A DNA stretch of 64,000 nt from positions 80 to 64,079 of the forward strand of contig JAEDFV010000001.1 of the NCBI GenBank assembly GCA_016297845.1. The letters run 5' to 3'. The translations under genes and the position numbers were made by a program. Positions 4,100-44,839 of the stretch are shown here, piece after piece (position 1 is the first letter of the stretch; each line of letters starts with the position of its first letter). Source of the stretch: Clostridia bacterium. Lineage in GTDB: Bacteria; Bacillota; Clostridia; Christensenellales; UBA1242. Below the pieces are notes generated by a model. It worked only from the letters and a program-made list of their open reading frames with translations, ran no database searches and had not been told where the DNA came from.

Positions 4100-4106
4100 T
4101 TCTTCC

Positions 4107-12048: not shown

Positions 12049-12078
12049 TGTTCTTTTTCTCCTAAATTAACTATACAA

Positions 12079-15753: not shown

Positions 15754-15770
15754 AACTTCTCCTTACAAGC

Positions 15771-15805
15771 AAAAAAAAGAGTGGCAAAAATAGCACATTT
15801 TTGCC
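15771..15805 (-). promoter_or_regulatory. terminator-like hairpin inside the rpoB 5' leader (possible attenuator)
   Basis: Minus strand: GGCAAAAA-tgtgcta-TTTTTGCC (15805..15783), then ACTC and U8 (15778..15771). It is downstream of the predicted rpoB promoter and upstream of the SD. Confidence 0.35.
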
Positions 15806-15870
15806 TTTTCTCTATATGTTTTAACTAAAAAATGCCCAATATTTGTCCACTTTAGCCTATACAATTTAGG

Positions 15871-15899
15871 ATTTTATCATTATTTTATATTTGTGTCAA
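15871..15899 (-). promoter_or_regulatory. sigma-A promoter for rpoB-rpoC
   Basis: Minus strand: TTGACA (15899..15894), 17 nt, TAAAAT (15876..15871). It shares the core GTTGACACAAAT with the tRNA-Pro promoter. Confidence 0.6.
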
Positions 15900-15950
15900 C
15901 AACTTTTTAACAAATTTTTAAAATAATTGTCAAAAACTGAATGTTATTTC

Positions 15951-15979
15951 AGCAAAAAATAAAAGGCTATAAAAGCCTT
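15951..15979 (-). terminator. intrinsic terminator of the giant-gene operon
   Basis: Immediately after the TAG stop (15982..15980): hairpin AAGGCT-TTTAT-AGCCTT (15979..15963), followed by TTTTATTTTTT. Confidence 0.7.
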
Positions 15980-24900: not shown

Positions 24901-25627
24901 AAATTTCGCGACTAGATTCAATAACTCCCGTAACTCCCTCACCGTCTGATGTTGAAAGAACGGTTTTTCCGTTGTTGGTCAAACTCACGTCGCCATCGAA
25001 AAATTCTAGGTCACGCATATTGGATTCAAGAGGATAGAAATTGAAATAGTTCTCGGGATTTATTTCAAGAGTTTTTCCTTTTTCAAGATAGATTATTGCA
25101 TTTGTTTTTGCAGAAAAATTTTCAAGTTTTGAAAAACATTTAACAACAAATGATGTCGTTTTCCCAAATTGCCCAGTTTTAACAAAAACTTCGGCAGTGC
25201 CCGCAGAATTTGCAGTTATTGTAACTTTTGCCTTTCCGTTTGATAGATATTCAACTTTTGAAATCGAAACACAGTTTGAATCAGTTGAGAAAAAGACATC
25301 TTTTCCCATTCCTTCAAAATAACCGCCAATTTGAACAGTAATTTCTCTTGAAGCAAATTGTTCATTGCCAACAATGAGAGAAACAGCATTTTGTGATGAA
25401 ATCAAACCAAGATAGGTTTTTCCTTGAGTAAACAAATCCTTTTCCGAAGACGACAATCGCAGTTCGTCAGAGAAATCGTTTTTCAGAGTGGTGGAAAGTT
25501 GAGTATCAAGCCCGTCTGAAACGTAGATTGATACATTTTCCCCAGAATTTTCTCCGCAAGAAACTAGGGTCACCCCACAAACTGCGACCAGAATCAAAAT
25601 TATTAAACTAAAAATTCTTTTTCTCAT
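15980..25627 (-). CDS. giant surface lipoprotein C, 3215 aa (Ig-like repeats plus three GLUG-type glycine-repeat arrays)
   Basis: 9,648-nt uninterrupted ORF. SD GGAGGA lies 4 nt upstream of the ATG. Lipoprotein signal MRKRIFSLIILILVAVCGVTLVSC|G. The N-terminal ~1000 aa are beta-rich Ig-like repeats. Three modules each start with a header such as YPYYIKTADDIEKL / NPYPIYSYEDMLDM...YILMNDIPL / NPYIISSQDDLEFL. Each header is followed by many units such as NVGGVVGNNSGTIENC and QVGGLVGINNGDITNS. Confidence 0.85.
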   Translation of the reverse strand: MRKRIFSLIILILVAVCGVTLVSCGENSGENVSIYVSDGLDTQLSTTLKNDFSDELRLSSSEKDLFTQGKTYLGLISSQNAVSLIVGNEQFASREITVQIGGYFEGMGKDVFFSTDSNCVSISKVEYLSNGKAKVTITANSAGTAEVFVKTGQFGKTTSFVVKCFSKLENFSAKTNAIIYLEKGKTLEINPENYFNFYPLESNMRDLEFFDGDVSLTNNGKTVLSTSDGEGVTGVIESSREISVRAIRLVGTEALDTISVVVVDSLESMGLKKTVYDNSGIESYAELGETLTVIQNVTSKEGVSYGVRKVYVTLDCDEKDLEISAKAFSKGQEIGIYIIPTNLEQITQNNFATSKFKNLVDTSREQFSTYVFEFEFKYEGYSEYDVKFTFKVGEYEYSESLKTTVEFKTASSLIELKKLGETKESEEFLIYDYYSGSYGTGLTISIGRSDLFSQSTISLEFEDADLGKFILMTRTGTQKQTLTFSSGETFCVKANLGVTPKTYNVKAKISFTFEGVDFVTEKTYNFNVQNSPTNVKLISGIESINNYNFDLNTSGKVLGQEVYNSRKTLELEVCGFAGSASLGALSDFTVISSSGILQVIKDGEKIKLTAIDTGFGSFEVVLGNGVKITFNYNVIQSVSNAEISFPEVSQNSSLTAVLSNYVYNEKTYDQYAIVKTNSAVPLLISASGDFTYKLKIDGTVIETPTNGKLIFENEFSKKELTVEITFNKVNESGEIVSVTENANGMILMSAITEISSLSISTSKGSTNFSLYDYTSVGYFSKNLATANIYLNVVPTSIKQDIFDAVVWTTNVGELAKVENVDSDVYTCDVFTFEFFKRGENAGMGIITCKVNDGNLFDDDGNLRLGRVTLSASVSRSKDVENSSVYKNINFNVKQANKVDVISVNKTQINLDPYSNNDQVLVSIFPLEATNKNWNYVFIPATEGIDESDISITKIETGLKIELKNNDVAGKGTLRLIALDSYSTVSDYSTFVDISVNINDGSEAYPYYIKTADDIEKLVNTNFEKYYIVSGNFDLSGYDWSNKTLSGTIKSEDGKSATFTKEFESCSNTTNEVYIGLFKEITGTISGIKLDVLFNLDFSENTGKTIYIGGFAGKNSGTIENVSVEIKNGSSISVGNNTLYFGGVVGVNNGTILNNITASSKLTMLVSGKFEIGCISASIISVGGAVGQNNGTIERTIEAGLVEFNNSFATANVNMTISCDSVDSVNTQSCVGGIVGSSTNLLSNLESVGTITASNFDNVGGVVGNNSGTIENCLSQAVVVGHDNVGGAVGTNSGTISGMIVESLEKKSGVTLISGNNNVGGIVGNMTGGSLGSSSFISYLSDTNAVDISSSNKYGFIVGAKTGGTIDYVVAIADGNGVSQFEITDTERNYAIYKKGDNNPTKSYGVAENKLKTEIKEVEGFGFIFLPTATINMMLTEEGEKFELSSSSLDGKVAFYIFLHDKNGDYIEKQISSMLTTSLGNRYLIESSNNEILAISNGKLVPKSIGETKLIVSSPYVTGSQEIYVKVISFANNISVYLDSTKATEIENDSTVVFDAELSKILYLSLLDKYNLKNFDIPTDIKMLFKIVVGGETKYIKPGEEILDLALKLVQNDPETYQISVNGNTGEYNVTILPYIEFVGEDGKTYFKILDLEVDEKSKKEINSKFVFENTTKGINISKNKIETEPYYVTDMNVSLDSINENEEVTISIKELDENGNILVDPGTLYLELIVQCGEDSLTNKSGESYGDTLSFHINCKVNSNFTIKFKLDENGKTISSAKTFKITITASNGVSSSMTITYQPQSVISVYTNLFPTISKDEEKYNFSGRFSYIPSGVIIPGQHSLLELSITPYFTYFKTVEIVNVEGNEYDLAFDLFDRVLDAPLSGAKRISNGISIPKSLIQNGKFYVRAFADQRMSDNSQVALKVIFRDENGNQIGDEVLLNFFVERLPGVILTVDGVSSGNNENNPVKLAQGVSYDLDVDVKGFTFGTFTTSGSIITDGQVCFELSGNASGFVSIVKNDDGTYKLVIKDALPSGERTLMIKSYGLDIDGEKSQEAILYIELEQFVVKENNLSDIVSNVFNNIYASAIGNSYTFEISLNSDILIYNKSNETIRNNVLKFLSDLSVGNETELVWSFRESTGTWNTIIGNKNFKDGVGNTKVYTTSKGGFKISYNETTKKIVIKFMKVHTPSAPDLEIKFSAKFYYNDNGIPSLYTEDVIGKNLYTLSQIFTFDISEKTSLRNPYPIYSYEDMLDMREGNYYILMNDIPLPDDFTPIETLIGGFNGNNYKITLPREYSLKSEETKSIKFGLFKITAQNTLLQNIVIFVNENTNFNFYDYTSVTFGLLVGENNGKITNCSVQGEQYAIMNLNLFGIPDSTEVGNQVGGLVGINNGDITNSHIETGLSLNATNLSTSGYLPANLGGITAINGGSGSIASSYVKARIENNTAGSVSAITGGVVGVNQLGGTIFTTYITSGYTDADMFPDEVAGVNIIYSTASAGAFVYENYGEISNCYSNIPVKTNESASGFVFNNQSEGKITHCYSTSALESSAKNGVFIGILTGISENSILNSGELEACFALESGNFNKGLGSNKGVEGLEILQTENDFSDSDKFEKYAFSNTADKTEGVWFWANGSLGEVDFCNEKGEYLTFSTKAPQLVSPNILTYGHKKLVDTYFDSATETTTYIYEDEEKNPEGSKFNPYIISSQDDLEFLISSSSGFTSGVIIKDLYCRLIGDIIYETSTVSSGLYQYTFLGNLEGNGYTIGNYVLDSGAKLDNAGFFGTIGLASQKVGSIKNLTFAPRYISLANCNNVGAVAGTVYGATLVNIVIDGATYAVELEGVTVLGKNAVGGICGVAEGEFNFNNIISSISVNASYRASLNNHPIREYLNGNSNQVSYAGMIAGIVNGYGRVVFASVYGNNVSAAENAGLMFGYIGKNVIVQNLEAIGAQGQKVKADVYGGVVAGHNLGTIEDVKIVGDDGSAYLGFFGSENFSPNAIGNIAGYMSNGTIKNVYVNTKLKAKIDVGALGGAVGLMSAGRIENVIIIGEIIGGNKIGGLVGQIKNLDSSSYKISIIDSFHSGAITSTSSEVITSVGTVVGYISGYVEDMINCKVVSPDSGVNSELTKTINIILTSAFKDDIQQKLSDGSYLTKIVINNYSISESLQVWYGIGIYEYKTTYKKGLLSDASLDIYKISSDNETIYIPLSAKYTLNGEKRPK

Positions 25628-25645
25628 ATCGTCCTCCGTTAGTTG

Positions 25646-28600
25646 TTAACAAAGTTTTTTAAACTTAGCATCGTTCTTTGTTGAAATTGTAACTTTTTGA
25701 TTATTAGCATCAACAACAGTTCGTTCAAGTGTATACAATTCAATATTTGTATCTTCTAAAACAAATTCTTTGCCATTAATTAGCGCCTGAACTTGACCAA
25801 TTACTCCTGAAAAATAGTTATTTGAATAATAGTTATAGTTCCACTTTGATACATTGTGACCACTCGTGGTGAAAACTAAAACATTCGCTCCATCGTCGAT
25901 TTTATAATATGTAACTGTATCACCCCCTCCGGACGGAGTTCCACTGCCTGAACTATAAGTTCCAGTAAACGATGCTATTATTTTCTTTCCTCCAACATTT
26001 TCTGAAACCCCAACAACATACGCATCACTGTCAGTTGTTAATACAGAATCATCTGCAAATAAGTTTTGGTTCGACCCAAAGTAAATTTTGTGGCCGTTGC
26101 CGTTAAACGTTCCAGTAAATCCAGAAACCGGCTTCCAAACATATTTGCTAAGGTCTACGTCAGACATAAGATTGATTGTTTTATCTTTATGATTATAAAG
26201 CGCATACGCTAAACCTGCACCAGTGTAGACGTTGATGCTTACATCATGCAATGAGTAGTCTAATCCCCGTTTAGCTTCATCATAGTTATATTTCGCTGGG
26301 AATATTCCAATCAGTGTATTCCAATAATTCGAAAAACTTTGACCAGTGGTGTTTTCTGGCGTATAGGACCCAGTTACTGTCCCAGAGTTATAGCATTGAT
26401 TAGCTTTTAAATCGAATCGTGAACAAAAGTACACAGACATTGTTATAGTATATATCCCAGGACCTTTATATTCAAATTTGCAAGATATCGAATATCTATA
26501 ATTTGTCTCATCTATATCAACGTTTGATTTAGTATAACTATAACCATTCCCTTCATTATACAAATTAGTACGTACAAGTTCTGTGCCCTTAACAAAGATT
26601 GCACCTTGAACTGGTGATAGGTTGGTACCTTCCTGATATACTCTTACTTCAAATGGAATACCTTCTATTTCAAAGTAACCTGCCTGTTTGCCAACGTTAC
26701 CAGACATAGTACAATCCATTTTTTCTTCAACGAATCCATCCTTATGTCCAAAATAATCTCCAACAATTCCGCCAACCCATATAGAACCAGTAATGCTTCC
26801 AAAGTTTGCACAGTTTGTAATTGAAACAGTACTGCTACTTGGAACCTTTCCCACAATTCCGCCGGCATTTCCTTTTGCAGAAGCTGTGACTGAGCCGAAG
26901 TTTCGGCAACCAGAGATTGTTCCGGCAGTCATCTCAAAAACAATTCCCCCTGCATTTGCCCCACCTGAAACGGTGTTATAGTTTTGGCAGTTTTTAATAG
27001 TTCCGCTGTTAGAGTTGACCAGCCCAGCATCTGTGCAAGTTGCACCCGAAACAATTATTCCTGAAAGCGTTCCAGAGTTTGAGTCAATAACGGAATCTAT
27101 AGAACTAGGAGCATACACAAGTGCCAAGTTTTTGATTGTTCCCTTGTTCTCATTGGCAAATTGAACAGCATTAAGGCCATATATATGATAGCCCTGCCCG
27201 TTAATTATTCCTGAGTTGGTTGTGATTGTTTTCCAATCAGTCATGCTCATATCTGTCATGAAAGCGTAATTGTTGCCTTTATTGATTGTTTTCCCGCTCA
27301 TCAACTTCAAGAAGCCAACATGAGGGAGATAGAAAGGGCCGTCATCGTCTTTTGTTTTAATGTCTAAATATTCGAATCCTTTGTAAGCTTTTAACCCAGC
27401 TACGTCACCAGCTTTGAAAGTTGGATAACCAAAATTGTACCCGGAGTTTTTTATCCAAACAAGACCGTTTGAATCACTTAGGGGAATTTGATTCGTACCG
27501 CTTAAATCCCCAATTTTGCAAACTGAATTTGAGGTTTCTTCTCCGGTTCCTGAACTTGAATTTGAAAAATTTTCAACTGCGTCTGAGTCGTAGAAGAAGT
27601 TAGAAACTATATTTTGGCCATTTGCAACACTGTTGGATTCTGCTTGCTTAATTGCCGTGAATGAGTTGTAAACTATGCCTTTGCTTGGAGCGGAAGGTGA
27701 TCCATCTCCATTGCAGAATGCATATTGCGCGCCGGAGTGAACAGCACCTGTTGAGTAGCAGTTTTCGATAACTCCTGTGTTGTTTCCAATAAATCCTGCA
27801 TAAGCAGATTTAACGTTCAACACAACACCAGTGTCTGCAATTTTTCCTGTGTTCGTTCCTACAACACCAGCAACAACGGTTCCTTGAATCGTGCCAAATT
27901 CAGCAGCGAGAAGTTTGAAATCATTACCTGTGTAGCCCGAAACTTCAACAGAAAGAGCAAAAATAATTCCTTTGTTTTTGTCTGCCACGCCCGATGGAAC
28001 ACCATTTTCCACACTTGTGACATTTCCTTTGCTGTCCGTTCCATTAAATTGCTTTGAAGTGAATTTGATTTTCACACCAGAGATGTAACCGTTTATTGTT
28101 CCAAAAATGGATTGTTCTCCCGAAGCAGTGATTGTATGTCCATCACCAACCAAGTGACCATTGAGTTCAACTGCGGAAGGTTTATTTATAGAACCTAATG
28201 TGCGGTCATTAGTTAAAACATAATAACCTTCGCCTAAACCTGCAGTTAATGAAGGGTTTTCATGAGGCTTAAGTTTTGTGCCTTTTTCTTCTCCAACTTC
28301 ACCGTTCAAAGGTTTGTCGTCACCAGTGAGTTCTGACAAAATATTGCTATAATACAAATTTTTCCCTTTCGCGTCTGTTGCAAGATTGATTTGGTGGCAG
28401 TAGTAATTGCCATCACTAACATAGTCCTCACTATGTGTATTACCTACAATTGCACAAATTTTTGAGTTGTTTGCTGTTGCGAAAACATACATTGAAGTTA
28501 AACTGTAGTTTCCAGTTATTGAGCCTTCTATATCTCCAATATTTCCAACATAACCAACAATTCCGCCAACATTAAGAGCAGACAATTTTGACCAAGAAGG

Positions 28601-31600
28601 ATTATCTTTTTTACCAATTTCAATATTTCCCCAAGCGTAGTTTGTCGAAACTGAATATCCTTCACCGCTACCGGCGTCAATCCAACCAACAATTCCGCCA
28701 ACGTAAAGACTAGCACTAAGTTTTGCATTAATTTTTATATCTCCAGAGACTTTTGATTCTTTAATTGATGCTTTAGGTCCCATAAACCCTACAATTCCGC
28801 CAGCATAACATTTCCCGGATTCTGGGATAGTTAAATCAATTGTCCCCGAATATTTAGAGTTTGAAATAGTTGATTTGTTTGTCGAGTTTAAATGACCAAT
28901 TATCCCGCCAACATAAATAACAAAAATCTTTTGAGAATTTCCTTCTGCTGTAACTTTCAAGTCGCTTCCAAATTGAACATTTTCAACTTTAGAAGAACCC
29001 ACAATCAAACCGAAAAGTCCGCCAACTGATGATGGTAATGGGTTTCCTTCTGAATCTACAACTTCTGAAGCAACAAGTTGCAATGACAAAGGCTCATCTC
29101 CGTCTTTTTTGCCTTTAAGAGTGACATCAACATTGTTGAATTGAGTAACATTGCTTACTTGACCTGCAATTCCACCAAGATTTATTAAATTTATTGTTTT
29201 GTTTTCTGCTTGATAGATTGAACCATCAACTTTAACTTTCCAATTTTCATCAATTTTGGTTGAAAGGGTGTTGATTCGACCAAACAGCAAACCGACATTG
29301 GCAGTTTTGCTTTGTCCAAGTTCAATTGAAACCTTTGTCAAAATTGTATCGCTTACAAGACTTTCAATTTCAGAACTATTTTTGTCATATGCTTTTCCAT
29401 ATCCAGTTTTGTCTGAAACAATTGCTGTTGTTCCTTGAGCATAGCCAACATATCCGCCAGCATAAACTTCTTTTTGCTTTTCGGACTCAGAATCTGTAAT
29501 GTCTTGAACAGTGATTGTTGTTTCTGAAACATTGTTATAACTGTAATTAATTGACCCTGATGTTTCTCCGAACATTCCGCCAACATAGACCATATCTAAT
29601 GGAGTATTTGGAGTTGTAACAGAACATTTATCCACTTTCACAAGCGAAATTTCAGCAATTGCGTTGGTGTTATTATCAAATCTTCCTGCAACAATTCCGG
29701 CATAAACAACCAAATAGGAATTATAGTTTTCTGTTGTTTCATTTTTCCCAGTACTTTGGTTCCATCCCTTACTATACGTGGTTTCTGTAATTTGTTCGCC
29801 ATCTGATGTTGAGGTTATTTTGCAGTTTGAAATTGTTATATTTCCGAAATCTACAACTCCAATAATTTCCCCAGCAACAACGCCAATTTTAGCTTGAGGG
29901 CTATTGATTGTTATATTTTGGAAAGTAATGTCTGAAATTTGAGATTGCGCTGTCATTGTGTTAGCAAGAACTGCAGTTGCAACGTTTGAACTTTCAGTTA
30001 CTCCATCAACCTTTCCGTCAAAAGTCAATTTCGAAATTTTTGCTCCAGCAATGTTATCAAAGAACGCACGAGTCATTCCAGTTAAAATTATTGCGCCTTC
30101 TTTTTCTCCATACATTGTTCCAAAGAATTTTGAGAAATATGCACCTTCATATGAATTTTGTAAACTTCCTTCAATCGCACTGAAATTAAAAATCAATTTC
30201 TCACCATCTACGGTTAAGCCCGCAAGTTCAGATGCTTCAAATTCACCATATGTTGATGATTTACCAGGTTCGTAAGTATAAGGGTTAAAAGTTGTTGTTG
30301 GGTTATCCCCAAAGATTACAACATTATCTCTCTTATAATAACGAGACAACTTCAAGATATCTGTTGGTTTTTCGATATAAAGAACTTTCGCCGTAACTCC
30401 AAAATAGATTGTTGGAAGAATTCTATCTTCTCTAAGTTCCCATGCACTTGGGTCCCAGAAGCTTCCAAGGAACATTTTGTTGATAACAGGGCTGTCAAGT
30501 TCAAAACCCTTATAATCGCTCATTGTAAACGTCAAGTTGTCTGCAAATTTATTTTCTTCTTCTTCTGCAGGAGGATTTCCGTCAACTTCGCCAAGAACAA
30601 AATTATATCCTGAATATTTGAATGTTTTGTTTGCAAAGACGGCTTTATCACCAGGTTGATTATAGTACAAAATTGAATAATCGCCTTTTTCTTTTTCGCC
30701 TTCATAATTTGTTCCAACAAGAGCGCTAAGCGTTTTAAGATTTATTGTTTGAACTTTGTTATTCTCTTCATTAAATTCATATGTTGCAATTTCATTATCG
30801 CCAACCTTTTCATTATCGCCAACCTTATATGTTGATGTATCTATGTAATAAGTTTTTCCTGACGTTGAGAAAGTTATTGCATTCTTTGATAGGTCATATA
30901 ATTTACCATCTTTTCCCTCTTTCATCACAACAACTTTACTTGTTCCACTTGGATAATAGTATTGTGCAACGTAGTTTTCGTCGTTTGCCAGTTGTTCTCG
31001 TGTAAGGAGAGTTCTATTACTACCATTTGTCATGTAACAAGTTTTTCCGAAAACTTCAAATTTGGCAACTTTGCCTTTGTAAGTGGAGCCTTCAATATCG
31101 TTATTAGAATCATAACCAACAATTTGAATTCCAATTTTAGCAACCTTATATGTTAATGTATCTATGTAATAAGTTTTTCCTAACGGGTTAAAAGTTACTT
31201 TATTTCCTGATGGGTCATATAATTCACCATCTTCGTCCTCGTACATCACAACAACAACTTCAGTTGTTCCATCTTCAGTTGTTTCATCAAGATAATAGTA
31301 TTGTGCAACATAGTCTTTGCCGTTTGCCAGCTGTTCTCGTATAAGGAGAGTTCTTACATCGCCTTCTTTCACGTAATTTGTCACGTAACATGTTTTTCCG
31401 AAAACTTCAAATTTTCCAACTTTGCCTTCGTAAGTGGAGCCTTTAATACCGTCATTAGAATCATAACCAACAATTGGAATTCCAGTTTTAGCAACTTCTT
31501 CCTTGCTGACAATATGCAAAACAAGAGTTTCGGTTGCTGAGATTTTTAAAGTGAAATCTCTGTAATCATAGGTTTTTTCATTATTTTCACCACTATATTC

Positions 31601-33769
31601 AGTTATTTCAAAATTGCCAGAGTTAAAGTTATTTGCAACTTTAATTGAATCGGTTATTGACGAATTTTCCTTTGAGTAGAAGTTGATTGCTGTGCATTTA
31701 TCGAAGGTCAAGCAACCAAGGTTTTGTCCAACAAGACCACCAGCAACCTTTGCATCAACATCTCCAAACGCATAAAGTTCGAACAAGTTTGCATTTGTTT
31801 TGCAAAGTCCGATTATTCCGCCTGCATAATCTGCTCCAGCAATTGAGACATCGACATTAGAGAATGACGTTGTCAAATTTCCACCAAGCATCTGACCAAC
31901 AATTCCACCGGCATATTTCAATGTTTCTCCAGTTGAATTGAAAAGTTTGGTGTTTCCACGGAACACTGATGCTGAAGAAGAGTAGTAACCTTTCAAGTTT
32001 TCTTCAATTGTCTTTTGGGTTTCATTATCATGTTCAATTCCAAGTTCAAAAAGGTCACCATAACTTACACCAACGATTCCACCTATTGTATTTTCATAGG
32101 AAATTAATCTTTGGTTCAAAGTTGATTCAGTTCCTGTCAATGTGAAAGATGCGTTTGCAAGATAAGTGCTCATTCCAACATATCCAACAACACCACCAAC
32201 GAAACTTCCTTGAACAGAAATGTTCTTTCCGAAATATTTAAGGTTAACAGCATTTGGTTTTGTTGAAACATTTTGGTTATCCATGATACTTTGATAGATG
32301 TCCAAAAGTCCAATAACTCCACCAGCAAATCCGTAGTCTTTGTTCTTGTCAACAAAGATTCCGCCTTCATTCTTAAAGTTATCTCTCAAAATACTTTGTG
32401 TGTAAGTGTCAATGTCTTTTTCTGCGTTTTTATTTCCTGAGATAACAGAAATGCTAGACGTCAAACTTGAAACTTTAGAATTTCCAGTCACAGCACCAAC
32501 AACACCGCCAACAATATTTTGTCCAGTTATTCTTGAACGATTTTGGTCATCTTCAGAAACAGCATATACACTTACGTTGCAGATTGCCGAGTTTTGTACA
32601 AGTCCGGCAACTGTTCCAACGTAAATTCCAGAAATGCCTGATGACACACTCTTAACTGTGATTGTTACATTTTTAAATACACCACCACTCGATATTTGAG
32701 AGAAAATTCCAACAGAGGATTGCGTGTCAAGAGCAATTTCTACATTTTTTATTGTCAATCCATTTCCATCGAAAGACCCACAATTATCTCCACTGTTAGC
32801 TAAAAGCATAATTGAAGAAGCAATTCTTATGTTTTCAACATATTTGAGTGTTGAGAAATCTATATCTGAAACAAGTCGATAGTTTCCGAAAACAATTCCA
32901 AGATTCTTATCATACATTTGGCTAATTGCATAGTAAGCACCTTTTGTTAGAGTTGTTTCTTGTCCAAAAACTCTGTTGAATTCATCTCCTGTTCGAATTA
33001 TGATTGGGTTGTTTGCGCTTCCATATTCATAACCATTTAGATATGGGAATATATCTAAACTTTCTATCGAACTATAATTCTTTATAATTCTTCTAACAGA
33101 AATTGCTTTTTGATTTGCTGAAACAAGTTCTGGGAACAAACCATTCCAAGACCAGATTCCGTCATAATCATTTTTGCTCGTCATAGCAAAAGTTTGGAAT
33201 GTTGTTTCATCAAACGTTGAAATCTGAACTGCTTGAGCTCCAGTTCCATACTTATCTTCCAAAATTGAACCAGTGTCAACATTTTTTACCAAATAATAGC
33301 AGTCAACAAGTCCATCTTCTGAAAGTTGCATTATTTCTTCACGTGCATTTTTGCCTGTGAATGGCATTTGGGTCGTAAGTTCACCAACAATTGTTGATGC
33401 ACTGTAACATCTTTCAAGTTTTCCATCTGCTTGATTGTTGTATACAAACCCTGATACAAGTCTGCCTGTGCTGTCTCCAGCAAGACGAATATTTGAATAA
33501 CAATCTGTTATTGTTCCATTGTTTTGATATGCGAATCCTGCAGACGTGCCTTGGCTTACAATACCACCACCAGTTATGTTAACGCTTAAGTCAGTGATTA
33601 ATTTTATGCCTTCACTATAAGAAGTTGTTATAAGTGCACCAAGATTGTTATATAACACAAAACCGCTTGTCGCATTGAGTGATGCAGATGTTGTCATATT
33701 TGTAAGTGTTGCACTAGCGAAATATGAAGCAGAAATTAAACCATTGTTTTTAACAACGAATCCCGCCAT
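25646..33769 (-). CDS. giant GLUG-repeat protein B, 2707 aa; probably the C-terminal continuation of ORF A (separated by one in-frame TGA)
   Basis: 8,124-nt ORF with no signal peptide and no SD. Its ATG lies 3 nt after the TGA of ORF A and in the same frame. The N-terminus (MAGFVVKNNGLISASY...) continues the repeat array begun at the end of A. It holds many header-plus-GG-x-x-G-x-N-x-G-x-I arrays. Stop codon is TAA, 18 nt before ORF C. Confidence 0.75.
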   Translation of the reverse strand: MAGFVVKNNGLISASYFASATLTNMTTSASLNATSGFVLYNNLGALITTSYSEGIKLITDLSVNITGGGIVSQGTSAGFAYQNNGTITDCYSNIRLAGDSTGRLVSGFVYNNQADGKLERCYSASTIVGELTTQMPFTGKNAREEIMQLSEDGLVDCYYLVKNVDTGSILEDKYGTGAQAVQISTFDETTFQTFAMTSKNDYDGIWSWNGLFPELVSANQKAISVRRIIKNYSSIESLDIFPYLNGYEYGSANNPIIIRTGDEFNRVFGQETTLTKGAYYAISQMYDKNLGIVFGNYRLVSDIDFSTLKYVENIRIASSIMLLANSGDNCGSFDGNGLTIKNVEIALDTQSSVGIFSQISSGGVFKNVTITVKSVSSGISGIYVGTVAGLVQNSAICNVSVYAVSEDDQNRSRITGQNIVGGVVGAVTGNSKVSSLTSSISVISGNKNAEKDIDTYTQSILRDNFKNEGGIFVDKNKDYGFAGGVIGLLDIYQSIMDNQNVSTKPNAVNLKYFGKNISVQGSFVGGVVGYVGMSTYLANASFTLTGTESTLNQRLISYENTIGGIVGVSYGDLFELGIEHDNETQKTIEENLKGYYSSSASVFRGNTKLFNSTGETLKYAGGIVGQMLGGNLTTSFSNVDVSIAGADYAGGIIGLCKTNANLFELYAFGDVDAKVAGGLVGQNLGCLTFDKCTAINFYSKENSSITDSIKVANNFNSGNFEITEYSGENNEKTYDYRDFTLKISATETLVLHIVSKEEVAKTGIPIVGYDSNDGIKGSTYEGKVGKFEVFGKTCYVTNYVKEGDVRTLLIREQLANGKDYVAQYYYLDETTEDGTTEVVVVMYEDEDGELYDPSGNKVTFNPLGKTYYIDTLTYKVAKIGIQIVGYDSNNDIEGSTYKGKVAKFEVFGKTCYMTNGSNRTLLTREQLANDENYVAQYYYPSGTSKVVVMKEGKDGKLYDLSKNAITFSTSGKTYYIDTSTYKVGDNEKVGDNEIATYEFNEENNKVQTINLKTLSALVGTNYEGEKEKGDYSILYYNQPGDKAVFANKTFKYSGYNFVLGEVDGNPPAEEEENKFADNLTFTMSDYKGFELDSPVINKMFLGSFWDPSAWELREDRILPTIYFGVTAKVLYIEKPTDILKLSRYYKRDNVVIFGDNPTTTFNPYTYEPGKSSTYGEFEASELAGLTVDGEKLIFNFSAIEGSLQNSYEGAYFSKFFGTMYGEKEGAIILTGMTRAFFDNIAGAKISKLTFDGKVDGVTESSNVATAVLANTMTAQSQISDITFQNITINSPQAKIGVVAGEIIGVVDFGNITISNCKITSTSDGEQITETTYSKGWNQSTGKNETTENYNSYLVVYAGIVAGRFDNNTNAIAEISLVKVDKCSVTTPNTPLDMVYVGGMFGETSGSINYSYNNVSETTITVQDITDSESEKQKEVYAGGYVGYAQGTTAIVSDKTGYGKAYDKNSSEIESLVSDTILTKVSIELGQSKTANVGLLFGRINTLSTKIDENWKVKVDGSIYQAENKTINLINLGGIAGQVSNVTQFNNVDVTLKGKKDGDEPLSLQLVASEVVDSEGNPLPSSVGGLFGLIVGSSKVENVQFGSDLKVTAEGNSQKIFVIYVGGIIGHLNSTNKSTISNSKYSGTIDLTIPESGKCYAGGIVGFMGPKASIKESKVSGDIKINAKLSASLYVGGIVGWIDAGSGEGYSVSTNYAWGNIEIGKKDNPSWSKLSALNVGGIVGYVGNIGDIEGSITGNYSLTSMYVFATANNSKICAIVGNTHSEDYVSDGNYYCHQINLATDAKGKNLYYSNILSELTGDDKPLNGEVGEEKGTKLKPHENPSLTAGLGEGYYVLTNDRTLGSINKPSAVELNGHLVGDGHTITASGEQSIFGTINGYISGVKIKFTSKQFNGTDSKGNVTSVENGVPSGVADKNKGIIFALSVEVSGYTGNDFKLLAAEFGTIQGTVVAGVVGTNTGKIADTGVVLNVKSAYAGFIGNNTGVIENCYSTGAVHSGAQYAFCNGDGSPSAPSKGIVYNSFTAIKQAESNSVANGQNIVSNFFYDSDAVENFSNSSSGTGEETSNSVCKIGDLSGTNQIPLSDSNGLVWIKNSGYNFGYPTFKAGDVAGLKAYKGFEYLDIKTKDDDGPFYLPHVGFLKLMSGKTINKGNNYAFMTDMSMTDWKTITTNSGIINGQGYHIYGLNAVQFANENKGTIKNLALVYAPSSIDSVIDSNSGTLSGIIVSGATCTDAGLVNSNSGTIKNCQNYNTVSGGANAGGIVFEMTAGTISGCRNFGSVTASAKGNAGGIVGKVPSSSTVSITNCANFGSITGSIWVGGIVGDYFGHKDGFVEEKMDCTMSGNVGKQAGYFEIEGIPFEVRVYQEGTNLSPVQGAIFVKGTELVRTNLYNEGNGYSYTKSNVDIDETNYRYSISCKFEYKGPGIYTITMSVYFCSRFDLKANQCYNSGTVTGSYTPENTTGQSFSNYWNTLIGIFPAKYNYDEAKRGLDYSLHDVSINVYTGAGLAYALYNHKDKTINLMSDVDLSKYVWKPVSGFTGTFNGNGHKIYFGSNQNLFADDSVLTTDSDAYVVGVSENVGGKKIIASFTGTYSSGSGTPSGGGDTVTYYKIDDGANVLVFTTSGHNVSKWNYNYYSNNYFSGVIGQVQALINGKEFVLEDTNIELYTLERTVVDANNQKVTISTKNDAKFKKLC
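30791..30826 (-). repeat. perfect 18-nt tandem duplication (2 copies) inside ORF B
   Basis: ttcattatcgccaacctt at 30791..30808 and again at 30809..30826. It encodes KVGDNE-KVGDNE. Confidence 0.95.
30824..31495 (-). repeat. tandem duplication of a ~110-codon segment inside ORF B (copies of 117 and 107 codons)
   Basis: Protein copies: VAKTGIPIVGYDSNDGIKGSTYEGKVGKFEVFGKTCYVTN...GKTYYIDTLTYK and VAKIGIQIVGYDSNNDIEGSTYKGKVAKFEVFGKTCYMTN...GKTYYIDTSTYK. The DNA block cttatatgtt[a/g]atgtatctatgtaataagtttttcc recurs at 31145 and 30824. The plus-strand shadow ORFs 30962..31156 and 31301..31540 are near-identical. Confidence 0.9.
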
Positions 33770-33772
33770 ATC

Positions 33773-36700
33773 TCATTGACCAACAATAACAAATTCAACA
33801 AAATCAAGTGAGTTTGTGGTTGTTCCTTTTTCTGCATCATATGAAACTTTTGTGAAACTTCCTTTTCCACCAACACGACTGTTTGTTATGCTTGCGCCAG
33901 TATAATTTTCTACAACAAGTCCACCAATTATAACGTTTGTTGTATCAAGTTTGTGTTTAGTTTTTGTTGAGTCAAAATAAATTTTTATTCCGCCGTTCTT
34001 TATATCTCCGCCTTCAATGTCGAGCGAAACAACTTCACAGTTATAAATAACACCACTGTTATAAACCGCAATTCCACCGAAATTTACAGACTTAAAGATT
34101 GTTTCATCAACAATTATATCTTCGAGCAACCCATAGGAAACAGTTAAGTTTTTGAGTGTTGCATCTTCAGAGACATTAACAAAAAGTCCAAGATTTAGAA
34201 TATCTGTCGATTGTGACAAATTAAAACTTTTTATTGTGATAACTTTGTTATTTCCGTCAAGACTAGCAAAATTTGTCTTTTCAAAAGGAACAAAATTTTC
34301 CAACACAATGTCGTTCATCAAAATGTAATTTGTTGAAGCATATTGTTCTGATTCGCTTTGGAGATAAGTAACAAATTGTTCAGCAGTTTCAATTGGAGTT
34401 GGCTTGTCTTCATCTGAATACAATTGGACATTAATTGAGAAATTGTATGTTATGAAATTGTCTTGTTTTGTGTTTGGAAGTCTGTAGCCAATTCTAATTG
34501 TCATGTTAACGCTTCCAACAGATGTCCCAACAATTGTTAGTGTCGTCGCGTTTTCATTGTCATAGCGAATTGTGAAATATTTATTTGCTTGAGGTTCACC
34601 TGATTTTGAAATATAAGGTGTCATATCACTTGTATAATATAAATTATAAACTATATTTTTAGCATCAGATGTAAAGCCACCGCTTTCTTGTGCTTTAAAT
34701 TCCCTATCTGTGTTTAAAATATATTCATAACCTTGACTGTTACTAAACTTGTAAGCAACAGTTTTCAAAAACTCTTCTTTAGCATTATTAATTCTATTAA
34801 TAGATGACTCTTGTGAAGCAGAAATCATTTCAGGAGTTTCTGAAAGCTTGAAATTGAATTTCAAGTCTTTTTCTATCGCGGAAGGGGTGTCAAAAACATT
34901 ATCTTGTTCATCATTCCCTTCAATCGTTATCCCCTCAACAAGGAAATCCACAACTCGAATTTCAATGCTGTCTGTCGTTGATTCAAGTCTTCCATTAATA
35001 ATTTTTTGGACAATTGTTTGAATTTTGAAATATCCGTCGTCTTCAATTTCTGCATCAAGACCAACTGTCAACGTTCCGCTATAAATTTTCTTTCCGTTAT
35101 CTATTTCATATTCACTTGTATTGAAATATATAGATGCATAATCATAGGAAGATTCGCTTTTATCAAATTCAGAAAGGCCGAATGATGCAAGAGTTTGGTT
35201 CTCACCAACTGTAAGTTTCAATTCTGCAGTTGTTCCACGAGCGACAACCGCATCTTTTTCACCATTAATTGTGATGCTTGCAGGCTCAATAACTTCAGAA
35301 ATCAATGTTATTGTTTCAACTTTCGACAAGTATTCATTTCCGTCTTCATCAATTGCAAATATTTGGATTGTTATTGGGAAATATAGCCCTTCTTTAACTG
35401 AGTCCAAAATCTTTGTTCTAACATAAATGCTACCTGTTGAGTTGTTTGTGTTCTTAATCGTTAAGATATTAACATCGCGTTCACTGCTATAACCTGTTGT
35501 GGTTGAAGTTGAAAGGAAATAGTCCCCGCTCTTATACATTTGTTCCATAAGAACATAGTTTCCGTTAACAACACTGCTTGTTAAGACAATTTTTGAATAT
35601 GTTGCGTACGCTGGGAACAAATTAATTGACAAAATTCCACTGTCACCAGGAACTAAAATTGAACTTGGTTGGTCTTGAATTTTAATTCCACTTTCAGTTG
35701 ATGCATCATCTCTGTTATGATGTGTATATGTGACTGTAATAATTTCTTGAGGTTTGACGACAAGGTTAAATGATTTTTCAACATCACCATTGCTATCTGT
35801 CAAAACAATTTTGTATGTCTTAGTTTCGTTTACTAATTGACGTTGATTTTCCGCTATTGAAATCAAAAGTTTTGCCGAGATTTTTCCGTCATGAGCTGTT
35901 CCGTTTTTGATTGAAGCATTGAATAAGTCAGAATTATTTTCAACTTTTGTTTCTCCAAAATCTTCTGAAATCCAAACAATTTTTTCGTTTTCATCTATAA
36001 TTTTCATTATAAGTCTATCACTTGTTCTGTTTGAAACAAGTTCTGCGTCAACGCTCAAAACTGTTGAAGGATCAATTTCTGCCTTGTCAACAGAAAGTAA
36101 AATTCTTTCCGCGCGAACAGCGACCTTGAAATTAAATCCAAAATTAAATGCATCTTCAGAAACTGCTTGGAATCTTGCAATAAATAATTCGATAAATACT
36201 TGTTTTCTTTCATTAATTTGCTCAGAAGTCAAAGTTTTGAATTCTTCTTGATTCCTGATAAGTTCCTTTTTCCATTCGTTTTCTGCAAGTGAGTTAATGT
36301 AAGTTTTTTGATAGTCTATGTTAAAGTTAAAATGATAATCTTCGTCAGTCAAAACTCCATTGTTTGTTGAAACCGTAATCGTTCCAAAGGCAAATTTATT
36401 TGTTTCACTTCCAGCTGTAAGCCCCAACACTTCAAAAAGATTTACACTTTCGCCAGTCTTATAGGCAGAAACAACGTTTTCTTCTTCGTCAATGTAAGTA
36501 ATATCAATTTGTACTGCCAATGGATTTGTTTTCAACATAAACAAATTATGATTGAGAGAAACCACATTCTTGTTTGCAACAGTAAAGTAAGAAGGTCTGT
36601 CTTTGATAATTGTGACATCTTCTTTTCCATCTAAATTCTCGTTGGAATTTATTCCTTCATAAATTGAAATTGCTCCAACGGAATTAGTAACAAAAATTTT

Positions 36701-39700
36701 AATTGTTTTAGTAATATCAGAATCTTGGCTTGCCAACGACCTGAACAAAGGTTTTATGGTTATAGTTACATATCCAGTTCCGACTAATTGAAGTCTTCCG
36801 TTTACAATCTTAATAATATTGATATCGCTTGAATGGATTGAGAAATCTGCAATTGAACCTTCATATATTCCGTTTACATCATATATTCTCAAGAAATCCA
36901 CAAGTTCAACTGAATTTAATTTGTCAAGTTGTGCTTGAGCTTTAGTGTCCATTGCAAGGTCACTATAAGTTTCGTTGTAGAACATAATGTAATAGTCATC
37001 AGCAATGTAGGTGCCTTTTATAATTTTAGATTTATCAAGTTTGCTTTCTGGGTTAACTTCTATTTTATAATTTTCTACCCAAGTAGAAACTTTTGTTCCA
37101 CGAAGATAAGGCAAAATTCCATCTTCAAAGACCCAAACTGAATCGCTTTCAATCTCGTTTCCGCCAGCATCGTATAGATTTTCAATGTCCCAACCAACGT
37201 CTTTAAACCCTTGACAAGTTGATGGAATACCACTTGTTGAATAAAATGACTCAACCCCACCAAGAACTGAAGGCACCATGAATGCGCTGTCATGATAAAT
37301 TGGGCCAAGTGTCCTTAACAGGTCTAAAATCCAAACCTCTTGTTCATAATCTGTTCCCTTGATTTTCAATGTTGTAATTCCGCTTAAAATATCATCGTCT
37401 TCCATGAATTTGCTAAATAATTTAAGCATTTGATATTGTGCATTATAAATGGAATCAACATAGCCAAAGAAATTTTCAATGTTGCTCAAAGTAACGGTTG
37501 AAATGCTAGAAATTCCTTGAGCAGTGTCAATATAGTTTCCTGCTAGTTCGAGTATTGATTCTGCTTCTGATTTCCCGCTTTCACCAAAGGCTGTTTCATA
37601 AAGTGCCAACCACAAATCTTTTGTGCCGTAATCATATCCTAGTCCAGTGTCACCCGTCAAAGTTCCATTAAATTGACCTTTCAAGGTAGCCACATCGCCT
37701 TTCAAATCTGCAAGAGAATTGTTTATTTGTGGAATAATTATATTCTCAACAACATTGGTTATTGCCGTCTTTAAATCAGCATCTGTTTCATATGCGCCAG
37801 TGAGTCCAAATAATGAGCAATAAAGGTCTTTTATCATATCCTTGGTCATCTCGCCAGTTAAAATCTTGAAATCATCGAAGTAAGGATTATAGTAACTAAA
37901 TTTTTCCCAAACGCTTTCTTTCATGAAGTCATCAAAGTTATTATATAAACCAATTAAATATAACTTATAATACAATAAATTTAAGTCATTGATAGCCACA
38001 TGGTTAAGTGAAGAATCAAGAACTTTAACTGAAGTGTCGTATCCAGAGTAATAAACTACATCTGCAAAATCTTTATACTTTATAGTTTCTTCATCATAGA
38101 AATATCCATTGTAAGTATCGTTTTGAGATTCTGAATTCAAATCAAGTGAACCCATGCTACTGAATCTTATATTAGGGATATAATTGCTGTCGGTTGTGTT
38201 TCCAAAAGAATAGAAGTTTAAGTTCAAAAAATCACTATCAACGTTGACATCAAAGCACAGATTTAATTTTGAAACATCAGTTGATGAAGTTCTTTTGAAA
38301 GAATAGGTTTCAGTTCTCAATGACTCTGTTGTTTCTTCGCCAGTCTCTTGATTTATCTTTCTATATTTAATAACAAATTCCAAAGTCAAAGTTCCGTCAT
38401 TTGAAACTGTTCTTGTATATTCAACTACTTTGTATACGTCGTAAGTATTTTCATTTTCGCCAACTGTCTCATATATTTGATTCCAATAATTAACAATCGT
38501 TCTTGTAAAATTTGATTCTTCCGCTAAATTAATTGTTACTCCGCCTTCTGGATATACTCGAACAACTCCTAAACTATCTTCATAAGAAATAGAGTTGATA
38601 TACACTTCATTTCCTCGAAGCATAAATCTTTCTATGTTAAGATAGTAACTTGAAGTATCTTCGCTAGAATGTTTTGTCAACGACGTCGATAAAGTAAATT
38701 CATCACTTTGTTTATTAGTTGCCCCTTCGTTGTATGTTCTGCTTAAAGTTGCAACTTTATTTGGTCCTGTTACAAAAAGTATGTTTTTGCAATATAGTTC
38801 GTTATTTATTATACTTTCTGTATGGTAAGAACTATTGAAATTTGTTGCCCAAAGTGCGGCAGTAATGTCGTTAACCCAAACGGACACAAGCCCACTGGTG
38901 TCCAAAATTACATATGCAAGAACTGTGGACGACAATTCATTTTTGACGGCGATAGGAAATACAAAGGAACCATTGCTGGTGTAGAAACATCCATTATCAA
39001 GTGCCTCGTTCGTGGCTGCGGAATTCGCGATGTTAGCTCTGTGCTGGGCATAAGTATCGGCAAGGTCTTGAGCGTAGTTCATAAATTCCGTTTTAGAACT
39101 AAACCCAAACAAGTTTGCTATGACTGTTTGGAAATCGATGAGTTCTGGACTTACGTCGGATCCAAAAGCCATCGTGTATGGATGATTTACGCCTATCACC
39201 GCACTTCTGGTGAGATCGTTGCTCTCGTTCTTGGTAAACGAAACAAGCGAACTGTTGTAAAGCTCTATCGCCTTATTATAAAATTGGGTGTAACTATTAA
39301 GAGCATTGCTACTGATGGTTGGGATGTATTCCGTACCGTTTGTAGGGATTTCAAAATTGTTCATAAATGTGGCAAACAATTCACTAAGGGTATTGAAGGC
39401 AACAATTGTAGACTCAGATGCCGTCTTAGATGTGTGTTTAGAAAGACCTGTAATTTCTCCAAAATCCCCAGCAATCACGCCAAACGGATTGCAATCGTCA
39501 TAACTTACCTTAACTTGGGTGTTATTGTATCCTAAAATTTGCCTTTCATACAATTCGGAACACCACCCTTTATTTTGTAAATTCAATGTTGCTGTTCCGT
39601 AGTTGTATAAATCTTTGTAAGATTTTTGGCCTGCATCAATAATTTCCATTCCTTCAACATTGAAACATGAGAAAGCGGCAAAAGCATCTAAAAGTCCTGT

Positions 39701-42700
39701 CTTTTTGTCAGTTCCAGCAATAAATGACGCCACAGGTGTTCCCGTTGCACTGCATGCACTAGGCAAAGAAGTAACATTAGATTTTATATAACAATTTTTT
39801 ATTTCAGAAAGTGAACCAGTGTATATAAACTGACCAGCACTATGTCCTAAATTAACATTTTGAACATCATAATGGACAAGAGAATAGCAATCCAAAACTA
39901 AATTGGTCGCTTCATTATAGTCACTTATTAAATTTCCAACAAGTCCGCCAGAATTTGATTCTTTGACTGGCAATGCCCCACTGAACATTGAACGTGAAAT
40001 TTGGGTGTTTGAAGAAATTCCAACCAATCCCCCAGAGTAAACTTCACGTTGAGTTGTGTTCAATCTATAGAAAATTTGATCAGTTGAAAGAGCATTCCAC
40101 TCAGCTGGAAATTTTCCGCTCGTGCTATCAAAATATAATTTTAATTCATCATCAGATATGCTTTCCCAAACAAAAGGCTTTGCGCCTGAGTATTCCGTTC
40201 CATTAACAATACTGTTGTAATATTCTTTAGGCGCACTTTCATTTATTTTTTCAACATAATGAACATAAACAATGCCTGTGTCGCTTGGCAAGAACTTTAT
40301 CAATTCTTTTTGTTGGTCAATGTCATAAATTGCTTCCACGACGCAACCATAGATGTTTCCGCTTTCAGAAACAGCGCAGATTCCGCCTGCGGAGAAATTG
40401 ATTTCATTTGAATATGAATAGGCAGAGTTATTCAAAATAAGAAGTGTCACATTTGCGTAGAAAGGAACAGTGTTGATATATTTACAATCTTTCAAATCTC
40501 CTTTGTTGCATGCCACAATTCCGCCAGCACTTTCAACGCCAACAACGCCGCCGATGAAAGTGTAGTTTATGATTTTTCCTTCGTTAACTCCGGCAATTCC
40601 TCCAATGTTTGCACCAGAAATACCTGTTGCCATGTAACCTTTTGTCAATGAATCGTCTGTCGCTTCAATTGTTCCCAAGTTGAGACCAACGAGTCCCCCT
40701 GTGTACTTAACAAGTTGACCTGCTTTGTATTCAATTCCGTAATACATTCCGTAGGCAGAGTTTGAGTTAATTACTCTTGATTCATCGTGTAATGCTAAAA
40801 ACCCAAAAAGTTCTGCAACCGACGCCTCAGAAGAAGACAGTGATGGATTGAAAACATTTTTATATTTGATGGTCGTCAATGAATCAGCATTACTATTTTT
40901 TGTTCCATAATGCTCTTGGAATGCTTTCATATATCCGAAAACATCCATTCCGTCGCCAGCATTTTCCAAAATTTCTTTGGTGTCGAGAGTTCCATTATAG
41001 TTGGAGCCAATGTTTCTTATCACACCTTTATTTATGTTTGCAAGACCGCCATAATATGTCACACCATTATAAGTTGAAACATATTCATCAAAGGTGTAGC
41101 CAAGTTCTGGAAGATAAGCAGTGTAATAGAACATATCTTCAACAACACCACTTTCAGCAATCATCTTAAACAAAGGTTTTATTGCGTAAATTCCATAAGG
41201 TGTGATTTCTGACTGATAACGTCCTGACAATTTGCCCATGAAATTTTCAACAGGTTCATAATCAACTGGCATGAAAATGTTGTTTCTTAAAACGAAAGTT
41301 GAAGCAGGAGAAGAGCCAAGAAGTTTTAAATCTTCCGACTCATAAATTTCAAAGGCAGAATCTGAACTCTTGCCATCGGCAACTTTGATTGGGATTCTGA
41401 CAATTGGCTCTTCGCCATTCCAACCATTTGTTGACTCATAGTAATTTGACGTTGGATAAATGACAAGAGTGCCATTTGCTCCAAATTGTGCCAATTTTTT
41501 CTTTTCATCTTTTGTTGTTAAATTTCTTTCCTCTTCAGACAAATTGAAATAATCTGAATAGTCATATGCCACACGAACAACTGTTAATTTGTCGCCAACC
41601 ATATATGCAAAGAATTGTTTGTCGCCATTTTCATCAATGTAATAATCTTTCTCTGACAAATAATCCCAGTTAAATTCAAATTCAAGAGATTTGTTTGTTA
41701 TTTCTTTTTCACTGTTTGCAAAAATATTATAGACAAGTTCAAGTTCATAAACATCGTCGATTAACGAACTTACATAATTGTTGTAAGCTTCTTCATCATT
41801 AACCTCAACTTCAACTCCCTCTTGTATAATTATTTTTTTGAAATCATCAGCGGATTTGAGTTGATTTTGAATGTAAATTGGGTCTTCTTCGCTTGCATTA
41901 ATTACTTCAATTTCACTTATTTCAACAGCAGTTGTAATAATAACCCTTGAAATTGCAGTAAATTTTTTGTCAGGATTGATTTCAGAAATCGACATTGCAA
42001 AAATAAAGTTTGCATCACAAGACTTTAAAGCCTGAATTGTAAATGTATACACATTACCTTCAAGTTTTCTTGTAACTTTAAGGGTAGCAGCTGATAAGTT
42101 ATATGTTACAACACCGTCGGCATTAAGATATAGCAAATCGTTAACAAATAGGTTTGAAATATTAACTGTTGAACCATTTACAAATATTTCCAAATTTTTT
42201 AGATAAGTTGGTATCAATCCTACATTTACGGGATTTACAGTCACACTGAATGAACCTATGGATTTACTTATGTTATTTGAATCTAAGAATTTGTCACCTA
42301 TTGAATCGTAACTATAAACATCAATAGTTCCATTCTTTATCGAAACACCTTTTATTGGGACAAAGAAATTTACCAAATAGAACAAACTTCCTGCTGGATC
42401 CTCAGTGTATGTTCCATCAGACTTCATTGCCTTAATATCAATTCTGATAAGGACATTTCCCTCAACTCCTGAGTTAATCGCCTCGAGAAGTGTTGAATTT
42501 ACCAAACGAGAGGTGTTAATTATTGAACTCGAAGATGACCATTCAAGATTAGCAACATCTATATCACTAATACTGATTGTTTTAAGAGTCTTTCCGTCAG
42601 GAATTGTAAAATCGAAAAATTTATATTCAAGGTAATATTGTGCATTTGAAGGAACAGCTTTTTTGATAAGTTGAACACCACTTCCACCAGAATTTGCTAT

Positions 42701-44677: not shown

Positions 44678-44839
44678 GCTTCCCCTCCGACTTTATCTTT
44701 AATCTCTCTAAAATTTTTATTTTTATTAAAATTTATATATATATTAATATTTTTTTTGTTGAAAACAAAGCAATTTAACAAGATTAAGGCGAAACAAAGC
44801 GATTTTTGAACAAAAAAAGAGAAAAAATTGCTTCGTTTG

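Follow-up and report, generated by a model that had tools for sequence, protein, structure and literature searches.

A gene for a giant, predicted cell-surface lipoprotein has probably been split in two by a very recent nonsense mutation in a Clostridia bacterium of the lineage Christensenellales; UBA1242 (GenBank assembly GCA_016297845.1). The window analysed here is a stretch of 64,000 nucleotides of contig JAEDFV010000001.1 (positions 80 to 64,079 of the forward strand), within which two long open reading frames (ORFs), A and B, lie end to end on the minus strand, separated by a single in-frame TGA. Together, A and B make up a single ancestral gene of ~6,072 codons, encoding Ig-like and beta-solenoid (GLUG-like) modules, and the TGA is likely to be real and unprogrammed. 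The evidence comes from close relatives, in which the gene is continuous and carries the glycine codon GGA in place of TGA, and from the conserved module that the stop interrupts. Judged by this comparison, the TGA is derived, stemming from a G-to-T change found in this assembly only. The case is that of an ordinary nonsense-split gene, or young pseudogene, with no new recoding mechanism.

Two open reading frames in a single frame

ORF A occupies 33776..44677 on the minus strand (3,634 codons, 271 of them contributed by an insertion sequence described below) and ends at the TGA at 33775..33773. A single GAT codon separates this stop from the ATG (33767..33769) that apparently opens ORF B (25646..33769, minus strand, 2,707 codons). 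Read in one frame, 44677..25646 comprises 6,344 codons interrupted by a single stop, ...FVEFVIVGQ*DMAGFVVKNNGLISASYF..., which reads DMAGFVVKNNG after the stop. A first-pass annotation, made from the letters of the window, had described this arrangement of A, TGA, GAT, ATG and B as a single gene of 6,343 codons: the layout and the shared frame stand, while the count includes the 271 codons of the insertion, so that the ancestral gene has ~6,072.

The two ORFs are equipped very differently for expression and export, as had also been proposed. ORF A has a Shine–Dalgarno sequence (SD), GGAGGGG, at 44688..44682 and a lipoprotein-type signal peptide at its N-terminus, MKKILGFIGCFVLVVIASMTLYAC, with a putative lipobox ...ASMTLYAC-G that was judged by eye. 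ORF B is intact along its whole length, begins MAGFVVKNNG and has neither signal peptide nor SD, the 20 nt 5' of its ATG containing GAG only (context CAATGAGATATG). Inspection of the junction sequence places the stop outside any simple repeat, and it is therefore not a classical phase-variation switch. An internal promoter or terminator near the junction was considered and rejected, since promoter-like and terminator-like sites there are as frequent as in shuffled sequences.

The ancestral codon

A word-indexed protein search found only two homologues of the junction, and missed both ORF A of the window and its 6,020-residue orthologue. The decisive loci were reached through the 90%-identity cluster of ORF C, the distant paralogue that follows ORF B, and the contigs that encode the members of this cluster. 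Two of them settle the ancestral state: L002, a contig of a Christensenellales metagenome-assembled genome (MAG; GCA_051883475.1), and L003, an independent Logan assembly (SRR30616832). In both, one continuous gene for 6,020 amino acids (aa) lies 5' of the orthologue of ORF C. Their junction DNA is 96% identical to that of the window over 349 nt (~95-96% around the junction) and reads GGTCAAGGAGATATGGCGGG, with GGA for glycine, where the window reads GGTCAATGAGATATGGCGGG, with TGA; the pair can also be written as GGTCAAGGAGATATGG in L002 and L003 and GGTCAATGAGATATGG in the window. The premature TGA (33773..33775, minus strand) thus derives from GGA by a coding-strand G-to-T change, equivalent to C-to-A at plus-strand position 33775.

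More distant species agree. A scan of one genome per species returned 45 loci, 30 of which match the whole ~440-aa query module. Among these is L005, from the nearest species in the scan, a sister species with 82% aa identity in the module, where the site reads GGA within one ORF of ~6,079 codons. The column aligned with the stop is the glycine of the motif GQGDMAGFV in nearly all 30 loci (one row is gapped and one has lysine), spelled GGA, GGT, GGC and GGG across loci, and the 61%-identical homologue P0001 reads IIGQGNMSGFV at the site. No stop falls inside the module in any of the 30 full-length loci, nor in any of the 32 other homologous modules, two close relatives included. From the module to the end of its ORF at least 1,284 codons are open in all 30 loci, and from the module to the ORF start there are at least 2,165 codons in the 27 loci with the start in view, three running off the locus. 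In none of the 30 does an A-like gene end, or a B-like gene begin, at this site. Since the gene runs unbroken through the site in the orthologues, with a sense codon there that a single substitution turns into TGA, the suggestion of the first-pass annotation that A and B form, or until recently formed, one gene is borne out. The two alleles of the junction can be written as the strings ...GTTGGTCAATGAGATATGGCGGG... and ...CAAGGAGAT...; two exact-pattern scans of Joint Genome Institute (JGI) metagenomes for the junction found 0 copies of either allele.

Further features of these loci deserve mention. The relatives' junction CAAGGAGATATG (1993..2004 of L002) holds the string AAGGAG, SD-like by chance, 2 nt before the conserved methionine codon, and the G-to-T change that made the stop also removed this string (33770..33781 of the window: CAATGAGATATG). 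Homologous modules (L005-L035, L045) lie in giant open frames in ~30 uncultured species of Clostridia/Christensenellales; these frames span 3,500 to >6,400 codons, many of them running off the 10-kb flank, and their products appear to form a family of giant lipoproteins that is widespread and uncharacterised. A 61%-identical orthologue on the Logan contig L001 (1..5743; ERR2235278) changes frame three times in 5.7 kb (0, 2, 1, 0), at positions unrelated to the stop in the window. Poor assembly quality is the probable cause, and it cautions that breaks in such giant genes are often artefacts.

The module cut by the stop

The stop lies within a conserved module of ~440 aa, consisting of a header followed by GLUG-like beta-solenoid coils (33092..34420, minus strand). 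A profile of 435 positions, built from 32 homologous modules, matches the joined A+B translation once, over its full length (positions 1-435 of the hidden Markov model), at aa 3420-3862 with an E-value of 7e-147, and the stop, at position 3635, sits near the middle of this match. The same profile matches ORF C without interruption at aa 2240-2632 (E 9e-66). BLASTP likewise aligns A+B 3413-4156 with C 2228-2939 at 27% identity, unbroken across the site of the stop. The ATG that apparently opens ORF B encodes the conserved methionine of GQGDMAGFV in the alignment of 32 modules. The stop had been placed inside a repeat-bearing module from the outset, and the profile agrees; ORF B begins with the latter half of a single conserved module, not with an autonomous domain.

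The predicted fold is in keeping with this view of the module. AlphaFold2, run on a 61%-identical orthologous module of 453 residues with a shallow alignment of 8 rows, gives an all-beta solenoid with a predicted local distance difference test (pLDDT) score of 69 and a predicted template modelling (pTM) score of 0.77. Residue 224 of the 453, which corresponds to the stop in the alignment, lies between two strands of this model, in a block with a pLDDT of 88. The best Foldseek matches in the PDB are right-handed beta-helix proteins, namely the GLUG domain of the IgA1 protease 6XJB, 3N6Z, 5NXK and pectate-lyase-like enzymes, all of them weak (E ≥1e-3, template modelling scores 0.25-0.39). In Pfam terms, the A/B module scores 8.6 bits against GLUG (PF07581), below the threshold of 20.5, while the module of ORF C scores 28 bits, above it, and the remote matches of the module profile search carry PF07581. 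Searches of the whole A, B and C proteins against Pfam gave no match, and no peptidase domain.

Two groups of known surface proteins are the closest in kind. The GLUG-motif beta-helix surface proteins of Gram-positive bacteria, exemplified by the Streptococcus pneumoniae IgA1 protease (6XJB) and by BACOVA_03286 (3N6Z), consist of repeats that follow the pattern ...GG(I/L/F)V(G)xNxGxIxN(C/S)...; the A/B module has such repeats in common with them, as well as a predicted all-beta solenoid, and both proteins are among its best Foldseek matches. It differs in falling below the Pfam threshold, in the weakness of the structural matches and in that no peptidase domain was detected. Giant Firmicutes surface adhesins, such as the Lactobacillus reuteri serine-rich repeat (SRR) protein whose binding region is 5NXK, are also very large, secreted, modular and strain-variable, and also contain beta-solenoid modules. 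In contrast with these, the A/B protein would be anchored as a lipoprotein, judging from its predicted lipobox, rather than being of LPXTG or SRR type; adhesion is a putative function, and the similarity in fold is weak.

An insertion sequence upstream in the same gene

About 5 kb upstream of the stop, ORF A carries an IS1-family insertion sequence (IS) of 805 bp (38763..39567, on the plus strand and thus antisense to ORF A), which the first-pass annotation had correctly located within the same ancestral gene. The element is flanked by a perfect 8-bp target-site duplication, CTTTATTT, with its left copy at 38755..38762 and its right copy at 39568..39575. The terminal inverted repeats, starting GGTCCTG and GGTGGTG, match at 15 of their first 21 bases. 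The transposase gene (38822..39535, plus strand) is a single ORF of 237 aa that matches DDE_Tnp_IS1 (PF03400; E 2e-24, 86.9 bits), and an InsA zinc ribbon scores 21 bits, below its cut-off of 26.1. The element is absent from L005: residues 1704-1974 of ORF A, which are the antisense translation of the IS, have no counterpart there. Insertion added 813 bp, or 271 codons. Once the IS and one copy of the duplication are excised, the A part has 3,363 aa and is colinear with L005, and the whole gene comes to 6,072 codons. Judging from its length, the 6,020-aa orthologue seems to lack the IS as well.

The insertion is in frame, and over all 805 bp of the element the antisense frame that continues the codons of ORF A is free of stops, so that ORF A reads through it. 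The transposase gene has no TTA, CTA or TCA among its 13 leucine and 13 serine codons, and in four ~50%-identical IS1 transposase genes the same antisense frame holds 3-11 stops. By a rough estimate, the chance of an in-frame, stop-free insertion is 1e-3 to 1e-4. This could reflect the survivorship of insertions that preserve the ORF, or coincidence. The element otherwise has the usual traits of the IS1 family, with a DDE_Tnp_IS1 transposase and N-terminal zinc ribbon, a length of ~800 bp, repeats starting GGnnnTG and an 8-bp duplication. It differs in the stop-free antisense frame, in a transposase encoded by a single ORF without a frameshift, and in its isolation, its relatives being only ~55% identical. 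The nearest transposases among 5.8 billion clustered proteins are ~50-55% identical, the few named ones including those of a Treponema MAG and a Breznakiellaceae bacterium, and no other copy of the IS was found in the viral contigs and plasmids searched. The G+C content of the element is 40%, against ~33% for the host. The gene has thus received two derived lesions, the IS1 and the TGA ~5 kb apart, and paralogue C is clean.

Age of the lesion

The sequence downstream of the stop looks like that of a working gene. Relative to L002, the ratio of non-synonymous to synonymous substitution rates (dN/dS) is 0.22 over 666 codons on the 5' side of the stop, 0.37 over 906 codons on its 3' side and 0.155 in ORF C. 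When single-base differences are polarised with L005 as outgroup, the lineage of the window has 12 non-synonymous and 18 synonymous changes, and that of L002 has 9 and 17. The 2,707 codons of ORF B contain no second stop, and neither lineage has an excess of non-synonymous changes. An old, decayed pseudogene, in which more stops or frameshifts and a downstream dN/dS close to 1 would be expected, does not fit the open ORF B and its dN/dS of 0.37. The lack of decay implies that the change is either very recent or not real.

The gene is also unusually divergent. Compared with L002 (window 25646..35773 against L002 1..9978), A/B falls from 95% identity to 88% and can then hardly be aligned as its 3' end nears, indels being numerous, and so forms a hot-spot of divergence inside a near-identical background: across ORF C, rpoB, rpoC, a radical-SAM gene and mutS the two genomes are 99.3% identical over 19.6 kb. 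Such a pattern points to recombination, or to diversifying selection acting on the C-terminal modules.

Decoding of the UGA codon

Glycine exactly at the position of the UGA in the homologues superficially resembles genetic code 25, in which the codon is reassigned to glycine. That the UGA is decoded as an amino acid, whether through such reassignment, through reassignment to tryptophan (code 4) or as selenocysteine, is nevertheless next to impossible. In the window, TGA ends both mutS (4107..6695, 862 aa) and a second gene (1356..2246), neither of which differs in length from its counterpart in relatives; in L002 and L004, too, mutS has 862 aa. The genes rpoB and rpoC and all other ORFs of the window are unbroken under table 11, and tryptophan is always TGG. 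Termination at orthologous lengths, together with the exclusive use of TGG for tryptophan, excludes codes 4 and 25 on the evidence of the window. The A/B stop is the only in-frame TGA in the window, and it is one step from GGA. Selenocysteine recoding was rejected: the homologues have glycine and not cysteine, and an Rfam search at the junction found no selenocysteine insertion sequence (SECIS) or recoding element, the only matches at E up to 10 being two chance snoRNA-like ones on the other strand. The G+C content along the window is 28-40%.

A hairpin can be drawn 3' of the stop. It is weak (z = -1.9), and 10 of 200 shuffled sequences fold equally well. Nearly the same sequence follows GGA in L002, with four substitutions in the ~75 nt folded, and the hairpin is therefore unlikely to be a feature paired with the stop.

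Origin of the stop

Several explanations assign a function to the arrangement. The UGA might be maintained by selection as a leaky stop, a fixed ratio of truncated to full-length protein serving to lower the output of a giant surface antigen or to yield two isoforms. UGA is the leakiest of the bacterial stops, in-frame stops under purifying selection are reported to be widespread (PMC7918605), the sequence downstream has a dN/dS below 1, and the weak hairpin follows the stop. All the same, such an origin is very unlikely. The homologous modules lack the stop, the hairpin is shared with the GGA-bearing L002, no Rfam recoding element is present, readthrough would put tryptophan at a nearly invariant glycine, and recency accounts for the low dN/dS. 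Belinky et al. 2021 (PMC7918605) argue for a functional in-frame stop only where it is common to at least two independent genomes; the present stop is private to one assembly, so that their case for a maintained stop does not extend to it. ORF B could also be a functional gene in its own right, expressed by termination and reinitiation at UGAGAUAUG as part of a two-protein operon. Bacterial ribosomes can restart at nearby start codons; here an AUG lies 4 nt past the stop in the same frame, and ORF B is intact. Yet that AUG encodes the conserved methionine of GQGDMAGFV and is present with or without the stop, the product would start halfway through a beta-solenoid module, with neither signal peptide nor SD, and no relative has a gene boundary at the site, all of which makes a separate ORF B highly improbable. 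Readthrough and reinitiation had both been raised by the first-pass annotation beside a nonsense mutation or base-call error; as evolved functions they have left no mark, and they may occur as unprogrammed by-products. The glycine codon of the relatives and the private stop speak for the mutation-or-error option.

Within that option, the TGA may be a base-call or consensus artefact, caused by a minority or damaged base or by a mixed-strain consensus, in which case the gene would be intact in the organism with GGA. This is unlikely, but to a much lesser degree, and a good deal is compatible with it: the nearest relatives all have GGA, the difference is a single base, ORF B is perfectly intact and shows no sign of relaxed constraint, all relatives found are MAGs, so that the genome of the window is probably one too, and L001 illustrates that assembly-born breaks do arise in such genes. 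A real nonsense mutation remains the probable explanation. Consensus substitution errors are far rarer than real single-nucleotide polymorphisms in a region where ~4-5% of sites differ from the nearest relative. A gene of 19 kb offers a large target for mutation, and the same copy of it carries a bona fide IS insertion, an independent lesion that lends plausibility to relaxed selection and to a nonsense allele that is real. Several points weigh against a real mutation or limit what can be drawn from it. The TGA is known from the assembly consensus, and a consensus error is possible; the allele has been seen in one assembly only, and the JGI scans gave no other copy of the junction; the missing signal of relaxed selection in ORF B fits an error as well as it fits a very recent mutation; and what would follow for expression (truncation, leak, reinitiation and polarity) is a matter of inference only.

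If the mutation is real, events may have run as follows. A single G-to-T transversion would have turned the conserved GGA into TGA inside one beta-solenoid module of a gene copy that already bore the IS1 ~5 kb upstream, so that the gene would be at an early stage of inactivation. The main product would be a truncated lipoprotein, secreted and lipid-anchored, of whose last module only half is present. Leakage of the ordinary kind at UGA, where Firmicutes insert tryptophan at rates between per mille and a few per cent, may add traces of the full-length protein. Such leakage has precedent in a catA86-TGA reporter, for which PMC7918605, citing Karow et al. 1998, gives 6% readthrough in wild-type Bacillus subtilis and describes TGA as a leaky stop. 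Ribosomes that terminate at the UGA could restart at the nearby AUG, yielding a signal-less, cytoplasmic and presumably useless B fragment. Such restarts would keep the 8-kb B region translated and may thereby limit polarity on paralogue C.

A bolder idea joins the two lesions. The persistence of the TGA allele and the improbable in-frame, stop-free IS1 might both reflect selection for ribosomes to travel along the whole 19-kb message, with reinitiation or UGA leakage avoiding Rho-dependent polarity on ORF C while a giant surface antigen is switched down. We regard this as very improbable; were it true, it would amount to a constraint of translational continuity on how giant genes are inactivated, in place of plain decay.

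Paralogue C and the neighbouring genes

ORF C (15980..25627, minus strand) starts 18 nt downstream of ORF B and encodes a predicted lipoprotein of 3,215 aa, an intact, distant paralogue of A/B. It has the SD GGAGGA, in agreement with the first-pass annotation, and an N-terminus with a lipobox ...GVTLVSC-G that was judged by eye. Its length is the same in the window genome and in L002, and the DNA from ORF C through mutS, at the 99.3% identity given above, supports the earlier description of this paralogue as clean. A/B and then C lie directly upstream of rpoB-rpoC on the same strand (8533..44677), an order kept in L002 and L004. A terminator-like hairpin follows ORF C, with the downstream sequence AAGGCTTTTATAGCCTTTTATTTTTT. 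An ORF of 236 aa runs antisense inside ORF C (21603..22313, plus strand) and is probably a chance frame.

Implications

The A/B gene resembles the nonsense-split genes and young pseudogenes of other bacterial genomes, among them those with the in-frame stops surveyed by Belinky et al. 2021 (PMC7918605). In common with these, a single in-frame stop lies one step from an orthologous sense codon, the halves share one frame, the downstream half lacks signals for expression and export, and the flanking sequence still looks selected. In contrast with those cases, the stop is private to one assembly and the gene is unusually large, at ~6,072 codons, offering a correspondingly large mutational target.

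For annotation, A and B should be entered as a single disrupted gene, flagged either as pseudo or as having an internal stop, rather than as two proteins, and the products of 3,634 aa and 2,707 aa do not represent natural protein boundaries. For the biology of the group, the locus indicates that giant, strain-variable surface-protein genes of uncultured gut Christensenellales gain lesions in a background that is otherwise 99.3% identical, which fits the view that such genes are dispensable or under fluctuating selection.

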